From: a virus | Taxonomy: Duplodnaviria > Caudoviricetes | IMG/VR virus record: IMGVR_UViG_3300030376_004411 | Coordinates: 1 to 63,083 of that record | Length of the DNA: 63,083 bases | Reading direction: 5' to 3' (one strand) | Shown here: positions 22,991-62,998 of the stretch, piece by piece | Layout: each line of letters begins with the position of its first letter | Numbering within the stretch: the first letter of the stretch is position 1 | The notes under the pieces: model-generated | Databases searched by the model: none | What the model saw: the letters and a program-made list of their open reading frames with translations, nothing else | What the model was told of the DNA's origin: nothing | Program-made: the position numbers and the translations under genes

Positions 22991-23004
22991 GAAAGCTTTA
23001 AATA
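22991..23004 (+). promoter_or_regulatory. BRE/TATA promoter for tail genes
   Basis: GAAAGCTTTAAATA, near-identical to the 19088 element. Confidence 0.6.
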
Positions 23005-39340: not shown

Positions 39341-41230
39341 TTATATTTCACACTTGTCACCGACACAAGCAAACTCAGATTTACCCTGAGTATTGTCTTC
39401 TAGTTCGTAATGAGACAACTGTGTATAGTCAATTAGGGGGTGTTCCTTTATAAGCCTTTCGTAGGTATGGACGTCTATTTCTTCATATGGAGCTAATTTA
39501 TACTTACCACCGTCGTATGGTAAGAATGACACTCCGTTAATAATATCCCAGTTTTGATACACCCAATTACCTACCTCGAACCATTCATCATCTCTAACAT
39601 ATACAGTCATACTAGCATTGTGTTCACACCAGTTGTGTTGTAAATTTTTGTAATGTTTGAGTTGGTCTAACGCAGTAACATCTTTACGTGTAACGCAATC
39701 TTCTGGTGATTTTACTGGAAACTCTAACACCCACGTCGTAGCTGTCTCAGCATCTTGACCATTTTCTGGATTACACGGTACACCTGCTTCTTTCATCAGT
39801 TTGAAAAGAGGGTCACGAGCTGCTATCCTATAACGACGTATATAGTATTGAGAATATCGGGGATGTACACCGGATGCAGAGTCTACAAGTTGTGATACGG
39901 TCCCTGATGGCTTTACACAAGTAGTAGCTGCTGGCATTTTAGTACCTAATATACCTGATGCTTTACGTGCAATACGTAATACACGACTTTTAAGAGCCGC
40001 TAATGCCTCCGAAGTTAATATATGGTGGTTATCCATTTGACCAGTCAAACTAACTCCTAGCAGCGCTTCTACGTCACAGTTCTTTTTCCACTCTTTTCTA
40101 AGATATGGAAAGTCTGTGAACGAACTTTGTATAACACCAAGCCATGTTGCCGTTTCGACTTTGTCTAACAAAGAGTCTAAGTCATCACCATCTCTTACGA
40201 CTACTTCCGAAAGGTTACAGAATTGCATATCTCGCAACATAATTTCTCCACAAGGATTAGTTCCTTGTATTTTAGGAGCGTAACGTCTGGCGGGTGCTTT
40301 GTTTTGAGCAGCTTGTAAATTAAATATACCTCTCTCTCCAGTTCCTGACTTAGCTAATGCACCCCACTCAACTAAGAAATCTGCAGCTGAGGGCTTTTCT
40401 CTAAATACTGCACTGTTATTTGCCATAGCTCGTTTGATAGGGAAAGGCCACTCTTTTGCATGACGCAAGTCTTGGTCATCAAGGTCACTCAAAGATATTT
40501 GTGAGCTGCGTCTAACTCCACCTACAACCACAATTTCTGCAATTTGATTACATATATCATGAGCTTCGATTGTTGTAAGCTGTCGACCTTGGGCATTATG
40601 CATAGTTTCACGTATAAAATCATGTAACTTTACTAGTGGTTGTGGACCTGATGCTCGACCTCCCATTGTAAGTAAACGAGCACCCTCCAGTCTTATAGCA
40701 CTATAATCAAAATAAATATTCTGACCTTCATATAAACTTCCCATTAAAGTTTTTACAGAATCAGCCCAACCAGCTTTTGAATCATCAATCAAAACTTTAG
40801 CTAGTCCCTGTCCTGACTTGATTTCTGGGACGCTAGGTAATTTCTTAACCTCTTCAGCTTCAACTGAGAAACCAAAACCAGTACCACACATTAGGACATA
40901 CAGACACTCAGCAAAAGCTTCTACAGAATTTATCTTAGCAAAGGAGCAATTATAAATGCAAGTGTTATCTGCTTTAGCTGCAGGACCTGCTGCCCAGAGG
41001 AATCGCATAGAAGGCATGACACCAAACTCTGTCATATACTTTCTAATCTTACTAATAGTTTTGTCTGGTATTTCTGGTCTTTCTGAAATTATAAAACCAA
41101 TAAATCTTTCAATTGTCTCAGGCCAATTTTCTCTTCTGGCCTCTTCTTCTAGCCAACGTGAATACGTTCTTTTATATATAAATTCTGCTACTTCGTTTTT
41201 AAACATCTTACCACTCCTTTGCGGTTTCAT
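39341..41230 (-). CDS. nrdJ: Class II (B12-dependent) ribonucleotide reductase
   Basis: YNCSF, VVVGGVRRS, TNPCGEI, CNLSEV, CVKPSGTVS, C-terminal CVGDKCEI. Confidence 0.95.
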   Translation of the reverse strand: MKPQRSGKMFKNEVAEFIYKRTYSRWLEEEARRENWPETIERFIGFIISERPEIPDKTISKIRKYMTEFGVMPSMRFLWAAGPAAKADNTCIYNCSFAKINSVEAFAECLYVLMCGTGFGFSVEAEEVKKLPSVPEIKSGQGLAKVLIDDSKAGWADSVKTLMGSLYEGQNIYFDYSAIRLEGARLLTMGGRASGPQPLVKLHDFIRETMHNAQGRQLTTIEAHDICNQIAEIVVVGGVRRSSQISLSDLDDQDLRHAKEWPFPIKRAMANNSAVFREKPSAADFLVEWGALAKSGTGERGIFNLQAAQNKAPARRYAPKIQGTNPCGEIMLRDMQFCNLSEVVVRDGDDLDSLLDKVETATWLGVIQSSFTDFPYLRKEWKKNCDVEALLGVSLTGQMDNHHILTSEALAALKSRVLRIARKASGILGTKMPAATTCVKPSGTVSQLVDSASGVHPRYSQYYIRRYRIAARDPLFKLMKEAGVPCNPENGQDAETATTWVLEFPVKSPEDCVTRKDVTALDQLKHYKNLQHNWCEHNASMTVYVRDDEWFEVGNWVYQNWDIINGVSFLPYDGGKYKLAPYEEIDVHTYERLIKEHPLIDYTQLSHYELEDNTQGKSEFACVGDKCEI

Positions 41231-41278
41231 TTTATAGTTTAAGCTACTATAAAAAGCTTTTTCTAAAATTAAAAAAGA

Positions 41279-41368
41279 CTATTTAAAGTCTGTCAAGACT
41301 CGCCTACCACAAGTGCAAACTTTATCTGGATTACACTTGCAGCGGCTTGAGGAAGTCAATAGACCCAT
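41279..41368 (-). CDS. 29-aa CxC..CxC micro-protein
   Basis: TAG-ATG adjacency; MGLLTSSSRCKCNPDKVCTCGRRVLTDFK. Confidence 0.55.
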   Translation of the reverse strand: MGLLTSSSRCKCNPDKVCTCGRRVLTDFK

Positions 41369-41773
41369 CTAGTTTTTAGGTTCTAATTTGTTTCCTTCAC
41401 CATCATAGTGGTCACCAGTGTACATGTGTACATAACCACCATTAGGTTTTTTACCATAGACTTCTTTTACCCATCGGGTAGAAGGTGTGTCTGGTCTTTT
41501 TTCAACAGTATATGCACCATTAACAAGGGATACTCCCTTACCTAGGTTCACTACTTCATCTTCTTCTTCAGCTATTTCTTCCATAAGTTCTTCTTCAACA
41601 ACTTCTTCGACTACTTCTTCTTCGATAAGTTCTTCTTCAACAACTTCTTCAATAACTTCTTCATCTTCCTCTGGTAATGTAGCTTCAGCTAATCTTACTT
41701 CTAGCTCTTCTTTCTTACCTTTGGTAGATAGTCCTAAATCTTTTAGGGCTGCTTTAAGTTCTTTAACTTTCAT
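41369..41773 (-). CDS. SAP-domain protein with Glu-rich linker
   Basis: MKVKELKAALKDLGLSTKGKKEELEVRL matches the SAP consensus; 26-nt duplication at 41583 and 41625. Confidence 0.8.
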   Translation of the reverse strand: MKVKELKAALKDLGLSTKGKKEELEVRLAEATLPEEDEEVIEEVVEEELIEEEVVEEVVEEELMEEIAEEEDEVVNLGKGVSLVNGAYTVEKRPDTPSTRWVKEVYGKKPNGGYVHMYTGDHYDGEGNKLEPKN

Positions 41774-41827
41774 CTACTCCTCCTTGCTACATTCGCATGA
41801 GCATGAGCAGTCGTCACAACAACACAT
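41774..41827 (-). CDS. 17-aa Cys-rich micropeptide (metallothionein-like)
   Basis: MCCCDDCSCSCECSKEE; GGAGG SD, TAATG coupling upstream, TAG-ATG adjacency downstream. Confidence 0.6.
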   Translation of the reverse strand: MCCCDDCSCSCECSKEE

Positions 41828-41985
41828 TATTTAACCCTCCCTATTCTATTACCATCTTTGTCAAGTTTCCAAGTTCGACCATGCTGGTCTCTGAAAGTCT
41901 TGACTGATTCTTCTTTAGGAGTTTCAACAACAGGTTCTTCTGTGATTGCTTCTTCTATTATTTCTTTCTTTGCTTTCTTAGCCAT
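41827..41985 (-). CDS. 52-aa hypothetical protein (not in ORF track)
   Basis: TAATG coupled on both sides; MAKKAKKEIIEE..WKLDKDGNRIGRVK. Confidence 0.65.
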   Translation of the reverse strand: MAKKAKKEIIEEAITEEPVVETPKEESVKTFRDQHGRTWKLDKDGNRIGRVK

Positions 41986-42821: not shown

Positions 42822-43925
42822 CTAGCAAGGACAATTGTCCCTGCAGATTTTCATTTGTAATAACTTATCCTTTGAATATCTATTTAAAGCTTTCTCTCTC
42901 ATATTGTGTATGATGTGTCCAGCTCGGCCGGGGTCATCAGTATACCAACCCCAGTCTCGGCCGGGCTCGTTATAGATACTCTCGAATATAAAATGAATGT
43001 CACGGTTGGAATAACCAGCGTTGATTAACTCCATACCTATCACCTTGTTTTCTTCGTGGCTGCTATGTCCACGCTCTATATTATGCTCTATAAGCTCTAT
43101 TACGCATTTTCTAGGGGGCATAATATAATCATGCTGTATAGAGGTATGCATAGTAGAGCTTACAACTTTATCATTGTTAATTTTCTCTAAGAGATATGCT
43201 ACACTTAGAGATACTGTGTGTGGTATTTCTAATTCATCACACATAAACTCAACAAAGTTTCGTAAAGCTTTCTTGCTTCTGTTACTTTCTATTTCCTTAG
43301 TACGGGGTCCCATAGCCATACCATATATTTCCTCAACTGACATCTTCATAACTTCCTCTACAGTAAGTTGTATACTCCATACCCCTGTAGGCTCTCCAGT
43401 TATTTTAGATATGTATTGTGTATTAGGTATACGCCTAAGACACGCTACACTATTGTTTATACATGCTTGGTCTAATGTCTTAAGTTTATACTCTGTCTTT
43501 AAGTATGTTAAGTAGTTTCTTAACATGTCTCTTTTGATAGTATCCGACAAGTCCAAGTGGGAGTAAAGGTCTATATTCATTTGAAAGCCCTTGCCCCCTG
43601 TAAGATATATCCTTGGGATAATCTCTCGTGGTTTGCAGTATTGCCTTATAAATTTTCTTACATCTTTTAGACATTTGTTTATATCCTTTGTGTCATCAAA
43701 ATCGAACCATAATGTATTGACAACTGCTGAATCATAGTTGGTTTTACCCTCACTTCTATCAACAGTATCATCAAAAACATATACACTAGTATAACAACTC
43801 TTCCTACCATTGTATTCAGCTATGTGCTTTTCTAGCTGTTCGACGTTATAACATCGGGCTATTCTTTGGGGGATTCCAAATTCTCTGAAGTACATTCTCT
43901 TAATATTTCTATGTCTTGTGCCCAA
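42822..43925 (-). CDS. Archaeo-eukaryotic primase, PriS fused to a PriL-C-terminal-like domain
   Basis: FREFG, YTSVY, LWFDFD, TGGKGFQ, LRRIPNT; C-terminal PPRKC..H..ICRDNCPC; start probably at MYFREFG. Confidence 0.85.
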   Translation of the reverse strand: MGTRHRNIKRMYFREFGIPQRIARCYNVEQLEKHIAEYNGRKSCYTSVYVFDDTVDRSEGKTNYDSAVVNTLWFDFDDTKDINKCLKDVRKFIRQYCKPREIIPRIYLTGGKGFQMNIDLYSHLDLSDTIKRDMLRNYLTYLKTEYKLKTLDQACINNSVACLRRIPNTQYISKITGEPTGVWSIQLTVEEVMKMSVEEIYGMAMGPRTKEIESNRSKKALRNFVEFMCDELEIPHTVSLSVAYLLEKINNDKVVSSTMHTSIQHDYIMPPRKCVIELIEHNIERGHSSHEENKVIGMELINAGYSNRDIHFIFESIYNEPGRDWGWYTDDPGRAGHIIHNMREKALNRYSKDKLLQMKICRDNCPC

Positions 43926-49757: not shown

Positions 49758-51228
49758 AGTCTCCTTCTGCTTTTGTTAGAAATTCTGCAAAGTCTTTACA
49801 GTCTGCATCCTTAGCTGATTTAAAAAGCTTTGGGTAGTCTGCGCTTACAACGTCTAACGGCGTCTCTGCTCTCTCACCCAACTCAACGTTGTTCCCGCTA
49901 AACGGGTCAGTAATCTTGACACTGCTACAACAGCGCCCAATGTATTCATCAGCCACTTCAGGCCACTCTTTTCGTACAAATTCTTTTGTTTCATTTATTA
50001 GTTCACTCCAATCTATTTTAGATGCAGGTTCTGTGAGTAGGGGGCTCTTGTAGTAAAGCTTGTGTTTACCATCGTCTTCTATTTCTAAGAAGCCTGTCAT
50101 AAGTAATCCACTTAATACAGGTCTCAACTTAGTAAAAGGTAGACCGGCAGCCTTAGCTGCTTTCTTGAGTTCACCCTCTGACATTTTTACTGTCTCGCTG
50201 TCTGCGAAACCAAACTTATCTAGTCTAGTTTCTGGAAACAACTTCAGTATGTCAGTCCCGTGACTAGGCATATGTAGACATTCCTCTACAAATGAATTAA
50301 GGTATATTCTCAAAGCTAACCAATTGTGTTTTGGTGTAACTAATCCATATATCTTACCACCACGTTCAACTCTTACGATTTCATCTGGATAGAATCTAGC
50401 AATAGCATTTATTAGTCTCAGTACATATTGTACTTTCGAACGAGACACAGGAAATGCTGAAGGTATAGCGTTGAATAAGAAAGGTGCACAAGGATTTTTT
50501 ATTATCGTTGCGTCATCCTCATCTCTTGCTGTGATAGAATCTACTATGTGTTTTTTCAGTCCATCCATTTCTTCATCTGACATTGTTGATATAGATGCAG
50601 TCTCTACTGCTGAATGCATCAACTTGTGTTTAATGACTCTTTCTGTTTGTTCTACTGTTGGGTTAGTGTGCATAATCATACACCTTCTTTCTAACTCAGT
50701 GTCAAACATAGCACTGCCCTTTTCATTTTCTACTGCTACACACATAAAGACATCTTTAGAAAAGAGGTATTGTTCTCTTGTCGATTTTGTTGTGACGTCA
50801 GTTACTTTGCGTGTTGCCATTCTATCATCAGCCCATGTCTTGATGATTTCCATAACACCTTCAGGTATCTTCTGTGCCTCTGGCACTGCTATGAAACGTG
50901 CTCTGTTGATACTATCAGCTTCATACCATACTGCTGTCTCAGACAAATGTTCAATAGTGTGAACATAGTCTTCAGGCAGTAGGTTGAATATAGCTTCCAT
51001 TAGTACACTCTTACCTGTCCCACTGTATGCCTTTACACAGAAGTTAGTATCTTCTAAAAGGTATGACAGGGATGCAGTAAGTGCTAAAGCATCTTCACCT
51101 AGTATAGGGAATAATGTACCATCTCTTTTTTTAGCGTTGTGAAAGTATCTCAACAGGTCATATATTTCGTATTTTTTCATATCCATCGTTCTCTTGCATT
51201 CATTATATTTAAAACGTTGTGTTCGCAT
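49708..51228 (-). CDS. AAA+ ATPase, putative replicative helicase
   Basis: Walker A AYSGTGKS, arginine-finger-like ELERR, winged-helix-like tail; start probably near 51186. Confidence 0.65.
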   Translation of the reverse strand: MRTQRFKYNECKRTMDMKKYEIYDLLRYFHNAKKRDGTLFPILGEDALALTASLSYLLEDTNFCVKAYSGTGKSVLMEAIFNLLPEDYVHTIEHLSETAVWYEADSINRARFIAVPEAQKIPEGVMEIIKTWADDRMATRKVTDVTTKSTREQYLFSKDVFMCVAVENEKGSAMFDTELERRCMIMHTNPTVEQTERVIKHKLMHSAVETASISTMSDEEMDGLKKHIVDSITARDEDDATIIKNPCAPFLFNAIPSAFPVSRSKVQYVLRLINAIARFYPDEIVRVERGGKIYGLVTPKHNWLALRIYLNSFVEECLHMPSHGTDILKLFPETRLDKFGFADSETVKMSEGELKKAAKAAGLPFTKLRPVLSGLLMTGFLEIEDDGKHKLYYKSPLLTEPASKIDWSELINETKEFVRKEWPEVADEYIGRCCSSVKITDPFSGNNVELGERAETPLDVVSADYPKLFKSAKDADCKDFAEFLTKAEGDYEEEEYETIKQYFQEK

Positions 51229-53990: not shown

Positions 53991-54020
53991 TATATAAAGG
54001 TTTTGGTCTATGAACTGAGA
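53991..54020 (-). promoter_or_regulatory. TATA promoter with upstream TCTCAGTTCA box
   Basis: TCTCAGTTCA-N10-CCTTTATATA; same layout at 56991-57020. Confidence 0.7.
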
Positions 54021-55629: not shown

Positions 55630-55725
55630 ATATAGAGTAAGTATAGACTCTATGTATCAAGCTCTATATAGATTGCTCTATTATATCTCCCCTTAAGAGA
55701 TATATAAAGCTTTGCTAAGTAGAGC

Positions 55726-57114: not shown

Positions 57115-59208
57115 CTAGACCTTTATTACCCTCCTGATGATTTTACTTATCTTAGTTGGTAACTCATTGATGTCGTTAACTAGTAGGTAGTTAGAAAACA
57201 TCTCAGCCATACTACGTTCACGTGCACCACTGATACCAACCTGTATGATACTCCAACCTTGTCCCTCTAAGTGTTTTACACACTTCTTAGTATGAGGAAC
57301 ACCGACTGACCATCTATACTTGTCTGCTGATGGTTCACCATCTGAGATAACAATCATTAGTTTGTTGCTACCCATTGATGGTGACTCAGCTTTGACTCTC
57401 TCGGCTGATGCTAAGAGAGCCATACCGTCTCTGTTCTCTGCTCTAGCTTCCATTGAACCAATGGCTTTCGTATCTGACTGATAAGATGGTGACCAATATA
57501 CTGACATATTGGTTTCACCTTCCTTACCCCATGTGTAGCCATCAGCTGTGTGGCCAAAGACCCACAGGTTGAGAGCCTGATTGTCTTTAAGTGCCTCACG
57601 CAAAGCTATTGCAGTTTGTCTGGCTTTGTCCATCTTCCATGAACCCATACTGCCTGACTCGTCAACTAAGAGACACACATCCAATGGTTTGTCTTCATCA
57701 ACGATGACATTTTTAAATAGGTCGGGTCGACCGAGAGGTATTTTATGTAACATCTTTTTGTCTAGTTTGCCTCTTCGTTGATTGCGAATGGTGTGTATCT
57801 TAGTATCACCATAAAGTTGTATTCTACGTTTGAGTTGACCGATAGCTGATTTCATTTTTGTAACGGTCTCATCATATTTTTGTGAGTGGTGGTCGGAAGC
57901 GTGTTGGTTACGCCATGTAACCTTAGTACCTTGTCTCAGACCGAGAGCGCGACTACTGTCCCACTCATCCTCAGAGTATTCACTGTCAGCTAAGTCTCGG
58001 ATAGCCTTGTCTAGTCTGTCACTGATACTCTCGGAGTCAGCTGAATAGTCAGCTAGTTTGGCTCCGGACTTATCGATAGCATCTCGGAGTGCTGTCTCAC
58101 CACTGTATCTGTCAGTGGTCTCAGCTTCTTTACGTTCTTGTTCTATCAGTCTGTCTCTAATATTCTTTAAGTGTTCGTCGTTCATCTCGATGTCATCCTT
58201 AGACCAGCCTTCCATTAACTCATCCATACGAGCCTCAGCACGTTCAATGATTTCTTCTTCGCTTACATCCTTTCTCTTCGATGCTTCTTCCTTAGCTAAC
58301 TGATATATGTATTCGTATATAGACTGAACTGCAACTAGTGTTGACTCTCTGTCTACCAAAGCATCCTTCAAAGCACGAGCAAAGAACTGAATGTGTCTAG
58401 CGTGTCTCTTCTTACGTTCATCTGAGATAGTAGAGGGAAACCTCACCATAGCTAACAATGTATTCAGTACATCAGCTATGACATTACCTTTGATGGTTCC
58501 TATGTCATGCTTAGCAAAGAAGTGTTCTTTTACTTTGTCGATGTATGTGACGTAACCAGCATGAGTCTTAGCTAACTGAGATTCGATGTACTCATCTTCG
58601 ATAATGTTACCGATACTATGTAGTAAATCAGTCTGTGCGTTGCTGAGACGTTTGTCATAAGAATATTTCTTTTGCCATTTGACTAATGGTTGAGTATGAA
58701 CTAAGTGTAACTTCTCATGTATAGAGAGACCAGCTACAATATCTAAGTTGGTGTCACTAGTCTTGATGAGAGTACCGTCAACATACAGTGCACCGGTTCT
58801 CATATTAGAATAGTTTCTACCCTCAGTTGCGAAGTTAAGTGTATGTTTCACAGTTGGGTCGACTACTTTACACAGAGAATCTAAATGTCTTTTGTGTTTG
58901 AGCATACGAGCTGATGATGAACTCTCATTGGAAGACCAACCACCCCATGCTGAGGCTGTTGCACTACCAACACTACCCCATGTGTACGAACCACCTCTAC
59001 CCCACACATCACCGTGTGCTGAGATAGATGGTGCGGGTGAACTGTATACTTTAGCTACTGATGGAGTGAGGAAAGGGTCAATAGTATTGTATTTGACACC
59101 ACACTCTGTACAACATCCGTGGTCATCAGCATCAGTCCAATCATCACAGGCCTGACAGAAGTCATCTGTGTCCTCAGCCCAATCGTCTACTGAAGTTTTG
59201 TAATCCAT
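57115..59208 (-). CDS. vWA-domain protein with HExxH motif (CobT-like MoxR partner)
   Basis: IHEKLH, NIIEDEYIE, RRGKLD, MIDAS LLVDESGSM, VISDGEP. Confidence 0.88.
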   Translation of the reverse strand: MDYKTSVDDWAEDTDDFCQACDDWTDADDHGCCTECGVKYNTIDPFLTPSVAKVYSSPAPSISAHGDVWGRGGSYTWGSVGSATASAWGGWSSNESSSSARMLKHKRHLDSLCKVVDPTVKHTLNFATEGRNYSNMRTGALYVDGTLIKTSDTNLDIVAGLSIHEKLHLVHTQPLVKWQKKYSYDKRLSNAQTDLLHSIGNIIEDEYIESQLAKTHAGYVTYIDKVKEHFFAKHDIGTIKGNVIADVLNTLLAMVRFPSTISDERKKRHARHIQFFARALKDALVDRESTLVAVQSIYEYIYQLAKEEASKRKDVSEEEIIERAEARMDELMEGWSKDDIEMNDEHLKNIRDRLIEQERKEAETTDRYSGETALRDAIDKSGAKLADYSADSESISDRLDKAIRDLADSEYSEDEWDSSRALGLRQGTKVTWRNQHASDHHSQKYDETVTKMKSAIGQLKRRIQLYGDTKIHTIRNQRRGKLDKKMLHKIPLGRPDLFKNVIVDEDKPLDVCLLVDESGSMGSWKMDKARQTAIALREALKDNQALNLWVFGHTADGYTWGKEGETNMSVYWSPSYQSDTKAIGSMEARAENRDGMALLASAERVKAESPSMGSNKLMIVISDGEPSADKYRWSVGVPHTKKCVKHLEGQGWSIIQVGISGARERSMAEMFSNYLLVNDINELPTKISKIIRRVIKV

Positions 59209-59567: not shown

Positions 59568-60749
59568 CTACTCACCCATTGATTGAATAACTTGTATTAT
59601 ACGAACTCTCTCAGTATCGTCACCACCCTGAATAGGGTAGAAAGGTAAACAGGTATGCTTCAATGCATCCTCTAAACTCATTCCATCGACAACTAACTCA
59701 GCTGATGCTAAACACATACGTGTTGATACTGCTGTAGCTAGTTCATCTGATTTGTGTAAGTCACGTACTCTCTTAGCAAAGTCTACAATCTTATCAGCAT
59801 TGTAGTCACTGAGCTGAGGATTACGATTCTGTAATAGTTCCTTTTCTTTCTGTGGAGGGAGATACTCTAGTTCGTATATACCTCCGGTAAATCTATCTTT
59901 CCATGCACGGTCTAAGTCATGAGACGCACCGAGATACTCTCGGCCGATGTTAGCTGTAGCATAAAAGAAGGCACCTTTATGGACTGAAACACTGTCAGCA
60001 TCCTCAGACTCATCAAGAGCCAAATACTTCTGACCATCCAATACCGGCATGAGAATGTTAGCTAAGTCACCTGTTCGGTCACGTGTAACCTCATCCAGCA
60101 TAATAAATGAATCAGCTTGTATTGCATTAACAAACCGAGAAGGTTTGAACCATGTACCTGATTCTTTGTCGTACTTAGTATCACCCAGCAACTTAGCTGA
60201 GGGATTCATAGTATCACCAAAGTTGAAAGAGTAGAACTCTTTTGCTGTAATCTCGGCTAGTATCTTACCGAGACTAGACTTACCACACCCTGATGGTCCT
60301 GTGATAAGAATGTTCTTACCACGGAATATGTTTCTCAACATAGTATAGAATGTGCTATCATCAGCAAACTTAAACTCTTCGGGTACATTTACTGAACCTC
60401 TTAGTTTGGACATAACTGTCTCTTTTTCCACTTCAACGGGTGGAGCCTCTTCTGGCGTGGGACTGTCTCGGTCGAATAGACTGTCGAGTCCTCCATGTGT
60501 GTCGGTCTTTTCCATTATTTCCTCATGTTCGGAAGCCTTTATAAGCTTGCCGGTTGCATCCTCAGTGTAGCCTGTTAGCCACTCAGTTGGGGTTTCTATT
60601 CCAGCTGTGGCTTTGGCTTCTTCAACTATCTCTGTCATCTCTTCCTCAGTATATTTCTTTAACATCTTAGTTGGCTCTCCTGCGCCTGATGAGAGTGCGG
60701 TCGACCCTACTTCGGTCGTAACCATATCTTCTCTCACCTGAGACACCAC
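59568..60749 (-). CDS. MoxR/CbbQ/CobS-like AAA+ ATPase
   Basis: GPSGCGKS, IMLDEVTR, ATANIG..Y, LDRAWKDRF, STR. Confidence 0.9.
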   Translation of the reverse strand: MVSQVREDMVTTEVGSTALSSGAGEPTKMLKKYTEEEMTEIVEEAKATAGIETPTEWLTGYTEDATGKLIKASEHEEIMEKTDTHGGLDSLFDRDSPTPEEAPPVEVEKETVMSKLRGSVNVPEEFKFADDSTFYTMLRNIFRGKNILITGPSGCGKSSLGKILAEITAKEFYSFNFGDTMNPSAKLLGDTKYDKESGTWFKPSRFVNAIQADSFIMLDEVTRDRTGDLANILMPVLDGQKYLALDESEDADSVSVHKGAFFYATANIGREYLGASHDLDRAWKDRFTGGIYELEYLPPQKEKELLQNRNPQLSDYNADKIVDFAKRVRDLHKSDELATAVSTRMCLASAELVVDGMSLEDALKHTCLPFYPIQGGDDTERVRIIQVIQSMGE

Positions 60750-62981: not shown

Positions 62982-62998
62982 TATATAAAGCTTTTTTC
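62982..62998 (-). promoter_or_regulatory. BRE/TATA promoter
   Basis: GAAAAAAGCTTTATATA ending 21 nt before the ATG at 62960. Confidence 0.7.

Follow-up and report, generated by a model that had tools for sequence, protein, structure and literature searches.

What a virus might gain from a gene of seventeen codons, and whether a frame so short is a gene at all, are the questions raised by one locus of a tailed-virus record (IMG/VR IMGVR_UViG_3300030376_004411; Duplodnaviria; Caudoviricetes). The DNA analysed, hereafter the window, is the entire viral record of 63,083 bases, estimated to be about 90% complete; its structural genes are encoded by the plus strand and those for replication by the minus strand. 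An earlier note, made from the letters of this stretch, had described a 17-residue open reading frame (ORF) with seven cysteines and had proposed that it may encode a minimal viral metallothionein. We found that this micro-gene is real and, where present, is kept by purifying selection at both cysteine and non-cysteine codons. Its composition and evolutionary pattern point, tentatively, to a metallothionein- or phytochelatin-like thiolate peptide, which would act as a metal binder or redox buffer. The site is made up as follows (aa, amino acids; nt, nucleotides).

41774..41827, minus strand: the micro-gene, 17 codons and a TAG stop; peptide MCCCDDCSCSCECSKEE, with 7 Cys in 17 residues
41836..41840, minus strand: GGAGG, Shine–Dalgarno-like, 8 nt before the micro-gene ATG and within the last codons of the upstream gene
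41777..41785, minus strand: AAGGAGGAG, codons 15–17 of the micro-gene (KEE), doubling as the ribosome site of the SAP gene
41827..41985, minus strand: upstream gene for a 52-aa Lys/Glu-rich protein, with homologues in relatives
41369..41773, minus strand: gene for a 134-aa protein with an N-terminal SAP domain (Pfam SAP, PF02037, E = 2.8e-9)

The ATG of the micro-ORF occupies positions 41827–41825 and its TAG positions 41776–41774, both on the minus strand. The TAA of the 52-aa gene shares one base with this ATG, giving TAATG, and the ATG of the SAP gene directly abuts the TAG. All the features first reported here, namely the 17-residue, seven-cysteine ORF, the GGAGG Shine–Dalgarno sequence, the TAATG coupling, and the stop abutting the next ATG, proved exact; the strand had been left unstated, and the ORF lies on the minus strand. 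A Shine–Dalgarno-like motif was located 5–12 nt upstream of the start in 18 of 18 family members examined, and in the virus family of the window the stop of the micro-gene abuts the next start or lies within 2 nt of it. The N-terminal Met is usually removed when Cys comes second, which would leave a 16-residue product of the 41%-cysteine peptide. Genes as short as this are likely to be skipped by gene finders. Two other readings of the site were rejected. For stop-codon read-through joining the micro-peptide to the SAP protein, the two share a frame in the window and in three of the relatives, but this reading was discarded because a 2-nt spacer breaks the frame in most members and the stop varies between TAG and TAA. 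A 115-aa ORF on the plus strand (41487..41834), which overlaps the site, is a Ser/Thr-rich frame opposite the acidic repeat of the SAP gene and is presumably not a gene.

A frame of this composition is not a common product of chance in these genomes. In the window, 1 of the 2,951 start-to-stop frames of 8–45 codons on both strands contained at least five Cys at a share of at least 30%, and Cys accounted for 0.8% of the residues in the long ORFs. Among the related loci L001–L093 (566,554 bases), 31 of 24,194 such frames qualified, and all 31 were the micro-ORF at the syntenic place. The substitutions between members are of the coding type. The window and L060 encode an identical peptide with five synonymous and no non-synonymous differences (S = 6.7 and N = 41.3 sites), and the probability that all five changes would land on synonymous sites is about 5e-5 by simple arithmetic from the site counts. 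L039 also encodes the same peptide as the window, with Ser written as AGC in one and TCC in the other. Among the 16 distinct DNA sequences of the 13-aa class, codon positions 1, 2, and 3 had 5, 4, and 12 variable sites, respectively. The synonymous changes affect non-Cys codons as well (Asp, Ser, and Glu), and hydrophobic residues occupied only 3 of the 135 non-Cys positions in 16 distinct peptides, compared with 42% in the long ORFs of the window; none of these 135 residues was aromatic or His. The peptide itself is therefore constrained, beyond the number of its Cys codons. A chance ORF and a hitch-hiking spacer were both ruled out by the frame counts and the substitution pattern, and the proposal of a real, translatable micro-gene was upheld by these two lines together with its retention in a sub-clade of relatives. 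The case is a clean example of a gene of fewer than 20 codons backed by comparative evidence alone.

The small-gene module is followed by this gene on the same strand.

39341..41230, minus strand: nrdJ, B12-dependent (class II) ribonucleotide reductase (Pfam PF02867, PF17975, and PF21995; PHROG 367, E = 7.7e-155)

The viral census comprised 51 related contigs that include 600 nt or more ahead of nrdJ. Eighteen of them have a hydrophilic Cys-rich ORF of 13–23 aa in this module, on the coding strand, at 166–566 nt before nrdJ in 17 and at 2,030 nt in the remaining one (L050); these 18 members have 6–9 Cys (35–47%), and CC and CxC motifs recur in the alignment. In metagenomes, a degenerate-pattern scan gave 87 stretches, 80 of which were fetched as loci. 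A hydrophilic ORF of no more than 20 aa was found in 41 of the 80, and one bare poly-Cys run was set aside, leaving 40 members, 27 within the primase-to-nrdJ module and 13 elsewhere, without any neighbour gene of the window. After filtering, the set comprised 48 different DNA sequences and 36 different peptides; three of the peptides contain Ile and are doubtful. The family core can be written M-C-C-[CK]-x-x-C-x-C-x(1-3)-C-C or C-x-C, with Asp or Glu as the last residue; 34 of the 36 distinct peptides start with MCC. The 13-aa members lack the KEE tail, so the conserved core is MCC...C.C..CC[DE]. A profile of the family (A1) matched the micro-gene and nothing else in the genome (E = 2.3e-5).

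Uncultured relatives of the virus are numerous. Cultured phages offered no close relative: among 50,697 phage records, neither blastn with the region nor tblastn with the primase-like protein of the module gave a match, and the family-B polymerase (PolB) was at most about 25% identical to records among the matches listed. A DNA pattern of the window type had no matches in the genomes of 185,579 species and four in viral contigs, all of them contigs already known, so that these scans gave no clue to the host. A broader pattern scan of viral contigs returned mostly noise (hydrophobic frames, repeats, and antisense matches). The sequence of a 23-aa relative was absent from a collection of 15 billion proteins.

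On the reading that we favour, the micro-gene would be a stand-alone, translated fifth cistron of a tightly coupled small-gene operon in the replication and nucleotide-metabolism arm of a marine tailed virus. Its product would be a 17-residue acidic peptide whose six to seven thiolates are spaced as CC and CxC, the only other residues between them being Asp, Glu, Lys, Asn, Ser, Thr, and Gly. Such a chain would be disordered and would fold only around soft metal ions. As a miniature metallothionein- or phytochelatin-like thiolate cluster, it would bind or buffer Zn, Cu(I), Cd, or Co, and could also absorb oxidants. We infer translation in vivo, metal binding, the identity of the metal, and the benefit to the virus. 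The minimal-metallothionein proposal held as far as the tiny size, the 35–47% Cys, the CC and CxC motifs, and the lack of aromatic residues and His are concerned; no sequence similarity to a metallothionein family or solved structure was found.

Several results weigh against this interpretation. Profile A1 found nothing among 177,635 PDB sequences at E values up to 10, Pfam gave no match for the 23-aa member up to the same value, and no metal-responsive regulator, transporter, or known riboswitch in the window could be linked to the gene. Instability in cells is also common among very short free peptides. The micro-ORF is missing from 31 of the 51 relatives, in which NrdJ is near-identical, and a profile search across five relatives lacking the syntenic ORF found no copy anywhere, including in a complete genome of 67,299 bases with terminal repeats. 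Homology between the micro-peptides and the 45–48-aa Cys-rich proteins that occupy the slot of the micro-gene in two relatives (see below) was not detected, with an hhalign probability of 24.6% and no BLASTP match, and leaders that precede the micro-ORF in a second virus group matched no Rfam family. The absences from the 31 relatives and from the complete genome mean that the gene is accessory, not core, and that any benefit during infection would be conditional. The earlier note had named loss of the ORF from relatives as telling against the proposal; the outcome was divided, with the ORF missing from those 31 relatives but retained in a sub-clade with coding-type substitutions.

Initiator Met and C2, C7, C9, and C13 (window numbering) are invariant across an alignment of 14 peptides, and such a fixed ligand set would also suit a zinc-knuckle-type adaptor, holding one or two structural Zn and acting through a bound partner, such as the product of the next gene or a host protein, instead of through metal handling itself. 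In two other virus contexts, the next gene does belong to one and the same family, encoding proteins of 140–160 aa with a hydrophobic segment, and other small proteins of these viruses have Cys-rich acidic tails (L266). In L245 (332–637), the upstream gene for an 86-aa Lys-Pro-Ala-repeat protein runs on in frame through the micro-ORF, which then forms the C-terminal tail of a 101-aa product, whereas in L108 (1738–2048) the repeat protein and the micro-ORF are separate genes. However, the fusion occurs on a single contig with a frame change in the Lys-Pro-Ala repeat, so that it may be either natural or an indel or assembly error, and the partner of an adaptor would have to differ between contexts. 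We consider an adaptor unlikely.

The presence of the micro-gene clusters on a tree of NrdJ, requiring 6 changes compared with 15.3 in shuffles (0 of 500 shuffles were as low). This was a quick tree of 48 rows with a midpoint root only, from which L038, L040, L053, and the partial L081 were left out. The gene is found mostly in one sub-clade (18 of 22 rows), and the deeper NrdJ branches lack it. Its neighbours vary among relatives. The upstream gene encodes a 50-aa MAKK protein, a 113-aa protein, or an HNH-like basic protein, the downstream gene encodes the SAP protein or an acidic Lys/Glu-rich protein of 47–61 aa, and in L222, L272, L227, and L278 the micro-gene precedes the 52-aa gene, in an order reversed from that of the window. 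The micro-gene is a self-contained cassette that moves independently of its neighbours.

In L046 (2183–2326) and L072 (2134–2268), the slot of the micro-gene holds a gene for a 45–48-aa protein with nine Cys in the pattern C.C..C.C..C ... PW...W.CD..CN ... CC. Pfam gave no match for the 45-aa protein at E values up to 10. The L046 protein belongs to a cluster of 14 near-identical proteins on many marine contigs, whose only name is 'hypothetical protein'. The ESM Atlas gave unnamed clusters only (best score 0.85), a word-indexed search two unnamed matches, and a profile search of 1.84 billion representatives four matches. The AlphaFold2 model of the 45-aa protein had a predicted local distance difference test score of 49.4, too low for fold comparison. 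A second family of micro-ORFs, MCCC[VL][DE]CKCSCC..HI.. (18 aa, with AGGAGG 4 nt upstream), occurs in L106, L127, L128, and L173 directly after an Hsp20-like gene; the same four contigs carry HNH- and HD-domain-like genes, and blastn with this family found no match in cultured-phage DNA. The viral contigs L096 and L139 encode large proteins (several hundred open codons) with CCCD/CCCE-type poly-Cys repeats followed by Lys-Pro-rich sequence.

The position of the module next to nrdJ suggests another explanation, in which the peptide would serve NrdJ, an enzyme with a single C-terminal Cys pair, in trans: its cysteines would shuttle electrons as dithiols or act as a reductant. In the virus family of the window, the micro-gene is invariably part of the small-gene module that closely precedes nrdJ, and nrdJ follows in 19 of the 27 metagenome members with the window-type context, the other eight loci ending too early. 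The true start of nrdJ is probably the second ATG, at 41206, which is favoured because the relatives begin with MFKNEV. The NrdJ proteins of these viruses end in ..AC.GDKC[ED]I (..ACVGDKCEI in the window), without a Cys-rich domain, and the same virus has CobT-like and CobS/MoxR-like genes. An in-cis analogue exists: in class II reductases, electrons pass through a C-terminal array of six Cys with zinc (Loderer et al. 2017, PMC5704485), and most non-monomeric enzymes of this class carry this zinc domain in cis. The same paper also reports that a separately expressed Cys domain failed to restore activity in trans. Moreover, the 31 relatives without the micro-gene have near-identical NrdJ, no nrdJ lies within 1.5 kb in 13 of the 40 metagenome members, and in the contig behind L108 the micro-gene is about 25 kb from an nrdJ of 68% identity. 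The distance of 2,030 nt in L050 and the promoter-like motif between the micro-gene operon and nrdJ in the window also speak against a tie, and synteny inside one family represents one event, not many. A role tied to nrdJ is thus possible but weakened, and we would give it only a small chance.

The promoter-like motif just mentioned recurs throughout the window.

41248..41260, minus strand: promoter-like motif AAAGCTTTTTATA, between the 29-aa gene and nrdJ, exactly before nrdJ
42881..42893, minus strand: promoter-like motif with one mismatch, 70 nt before a gene for a 119-aa protein
49819–49831, 53991–54003, 55701–55713, and 62982–62994, minus strand: further copies of AAAGCTTTWTATA from the recurring-motif scan
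22992–23004, plus strand: a further copy of AAAGCTTTWTATA from the same scan

The window contains 37 matches to AAAGCTTTWTATA with at most two mismatches, compared with 10.1 ± 3.4 expected, and none of 100 shuffles reached 37. Of the eight best matches, seven are on the coding strand of their respective regions, and the remaining one is a palindromic shadow of the copy at nrdJ; those copies that were placed against ORF starts lie shortly upstream of one. We infer from these properties that AAAGCTTTWTATA is a promoter element, and on this reading the micro-gene would be the fifth of seven cistrons and nrdJ its own transcription unit. The motif at 42881–42893 is the probable start of the seven-cistron unit; the promoter-like motif nearest to the micro-gene is four genes upstream. 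A scan for sigma-70 promoters and terminators showed no enrichment near the micro-gene, and a search for tRNA genes found none. We take AAAGCTTTWTATA to resemble an archaeal B recognition element and TATA box. The PolB matches include halovirus records, and another protein of the window is weakly primase-like. On the grounds of the motif, PolB, and the primase-like protein, a marine archaeon rather than a bacterium is a possible host; membership of the virus in the magroviruses was not shown, within the accessible part of the source.

Another virus group has two copies of the motif in 11 of 11 loci: one precedes the micro-ORF by about 104 nt (7 nt in one locus), and the other follows its stop by 3 nt. 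There the micro-gene looks like its own transcription unit. The roughly 100-nt leader in this group (L233:1385–1503, L281:1384–1503, L251, L226, and L146) contains a conserved long stem, GTGGCTCC...GGGGCCAC, with a consensus fold of −21.2 kcal/mol in sequences too alike to reveal covariation. This stem may be a regulatory RNA ahead of the Cys micro-gene.

The dense run of Cys codons would also be expected of a cysteine-sensing regulatory upstream ORF, in which ribosomes pausing at Cys codons under scarce charged tRNA-Cys would alter coupled downstream translation. Codons 2–4 of the micro-gene are consecutive Cys codons, 7 of its 17 codons specify Cys, and its stop lies at or within 2 nt of the next start, so that stalling would affect the coupling. 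Leader peptides show comparable codon densities, the his and phe leaders being the classical cases. A published precedent is the polycysteine leaderless short ORFs (sORFs) of mycobacteria, the 'Cys ribulon', described by Canestrari et al. (bioRxiv 10.1101/834739). Nevertheless, the micro-gene is an internal, Shine–Dalgarno-led cistron and not the first ORF of its transcript, and no RNA duplex covers the next ribosome site (single-sequence fold, z = −0.64). The consensus fold of eight relatives was −3.3 kcal/mol with a positive covariation term (+0.12). The downstream gene varies among relatives (SAP, Lys/Glu-rich 47–61-aa, or hydrophobic-segment protein) and is never a sulfur or cysteine gene. 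In the 11 loci of the second virus group, the motif 3 nt past the stop means that the next gene has its own start. Finally, the identity of the non-Cys residues is preserved across synonymous changes, and these residues are almost never hydrophobic, a constraint that a pure codon sensor would not need. Cysteine sensing thus appears improbable. A conserved RNA element at the window site was ruled out by the same z score and the consensus fold without covariation support.

Peptides of 13–17 residues rich in Cys, Ser, and Thr also recall thiopeptide cores, which are similar in composition, and the micro-gene might accordingly encode the precursor of a ribosomally made, post-translationally modified peptide of the thiazole or thioether type. 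However, the peptide has neither leader nor follower, its Cys run begins at residue 2, and the neighbours of the micro-gene encode small Lys/Glu-rich proteins. No cyclodehydratase, radical-SAM, or lanthipeptide enzyme was found among the 44 window ORFs scanned against PHROGs, out of 83 of at least 90 aa. Such a precursor is very improbable. The lack of conserved RNA structure, sulfur genes, and maturation enzymes is evidence against both the cysteine-sensing leader and the modified-peptide precursor.

The earlier note had also pointed to a second peptide of CxC..CxC type just upstream of the reductase gene.

41279..41368, minus strand: gene for a 29-aa peptide with CKC..CTC, from a separate conserved family ending in ..RVL.D[FY]K

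The peptide is present where described, but its gene is a different one. The family starts with MGLLT.., occurs in about 32 of the 51 related loci, and is far more conserved than the micro-gene. Its comparison covered L037, L044, L046, L052, and L066, and in L037, L044, and L046 the homologues of 24–25 aa are free of Cys, with KKRKKKG replacing the Cys loop. The cysteines of this family are therefore non-essential and lend no backing to a common metal theme. In four loci, a zinc-ribbon-like peptide of 28–29 aa (CPxCG..CxxC) takes the place of the 29-aa gene. The exact 29-aa sequence of the window was absent from the collection of 15 billion proteins. The 367-aa primase-like protein of the module (42822–43925, minus strand) ends in CRDNCPC, or CKDNCSC in relatives, which is another CxC-type motif.

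To return to the metallothionein-like reading, the virus carries a CobT-like gene (57115–59208, minus strand; PHROG 17276, E = 4.5e-7) and a CobS/MoxR-like AAA gene (59568–60749, minus strand; PHROG 249 'porphyrin biosynthesis', E = 3.3e-25), in addition to MazG, Hsp20, glycosyltransferase, and phosphoheptose-isomerase-like genes. From the first two and the B12 enzyme, cobalt is an attractive guess for the metal, though only a guess. A broader and rather doubtful extension is that uncultured marine viruses harbour a widespread, unannotated class of ribosomal 13–17-residue poly-Cys peptides that would re-route trace metals that are scarce or toxic (Co, Zn, Cu), or thiol redox power, in the infected host, possibly serving the B12 reductase and the cobalt-chelatase-like genes. 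If such peptides do bind metal, they would be much smaller than the fungal copper-thionein of 26 residues that used to count as the shortest metallothionein. Metal binding by the peptide of the window would push down the size limit of gene-encoded molecules of the metallothionein type and would show that marine viruses bring their own trace-metal or thiol buffers, which bears on metal use in infected ocean microbes. A peptide of 13–17 residues can be synthesised, which makes a bench test feasible even though the virus is uncultured. No publication on virus- or phage-encoded metallothionein-like peptides was found in a search that did not cover paywalled literature.

Four known systems invite comparison. 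Like the mycobacterial polycysteine sORFs, the micro-gene is a tiny unannotated ORF with consecutive Cys codons upstream of other genes. Unlike them, the viral ORF is Shine–Dalgarno-led and operon-internal, has no duplex masking a ribosome-binding site, is not followed by sulfur genes, and has constrained non-Cys residues. With the Cys-rich zinc domain of class II reductases it shares about six Cys within at most about 30 residues and an association with a B12-dependent reductase; that domain is fused to the enzyme, has CxxC pairs, and is inactive in trans, whereas the viral peptide is a separate gene product with CC and CxC, sometimes encoded far from nrdJ. Natural phytochelatins are made by an enzyme and have gamma-glutamyl links, and synthetic gene-encoded (Glu-Cys)n analogues have been used in bioremediation. 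The viral peptides are similarly short and acidic, with Cys alternating with Glu or Asp, and the member MCCKENCECECCE approaches the (EC)n pattern, although, in contrast to natural phytochelatins, they are ribosomal and have a fixed 13–17-residue design. The metallothionein of Neurospora crassa has seven Cys and binds Cu(I). Its length is given as 26 residues in PMC4755600. Although the viral peptides differ from such short fungal Cu-thioneins in being half as long (13–17 aa), strongly acidic, virus-encoded, and without detectable sequence relation, the two have in common a very small size, a Cys content of at least one-third, CC and CxC motifs, the lack of aromatic residues and His, and six to seven thiolates.

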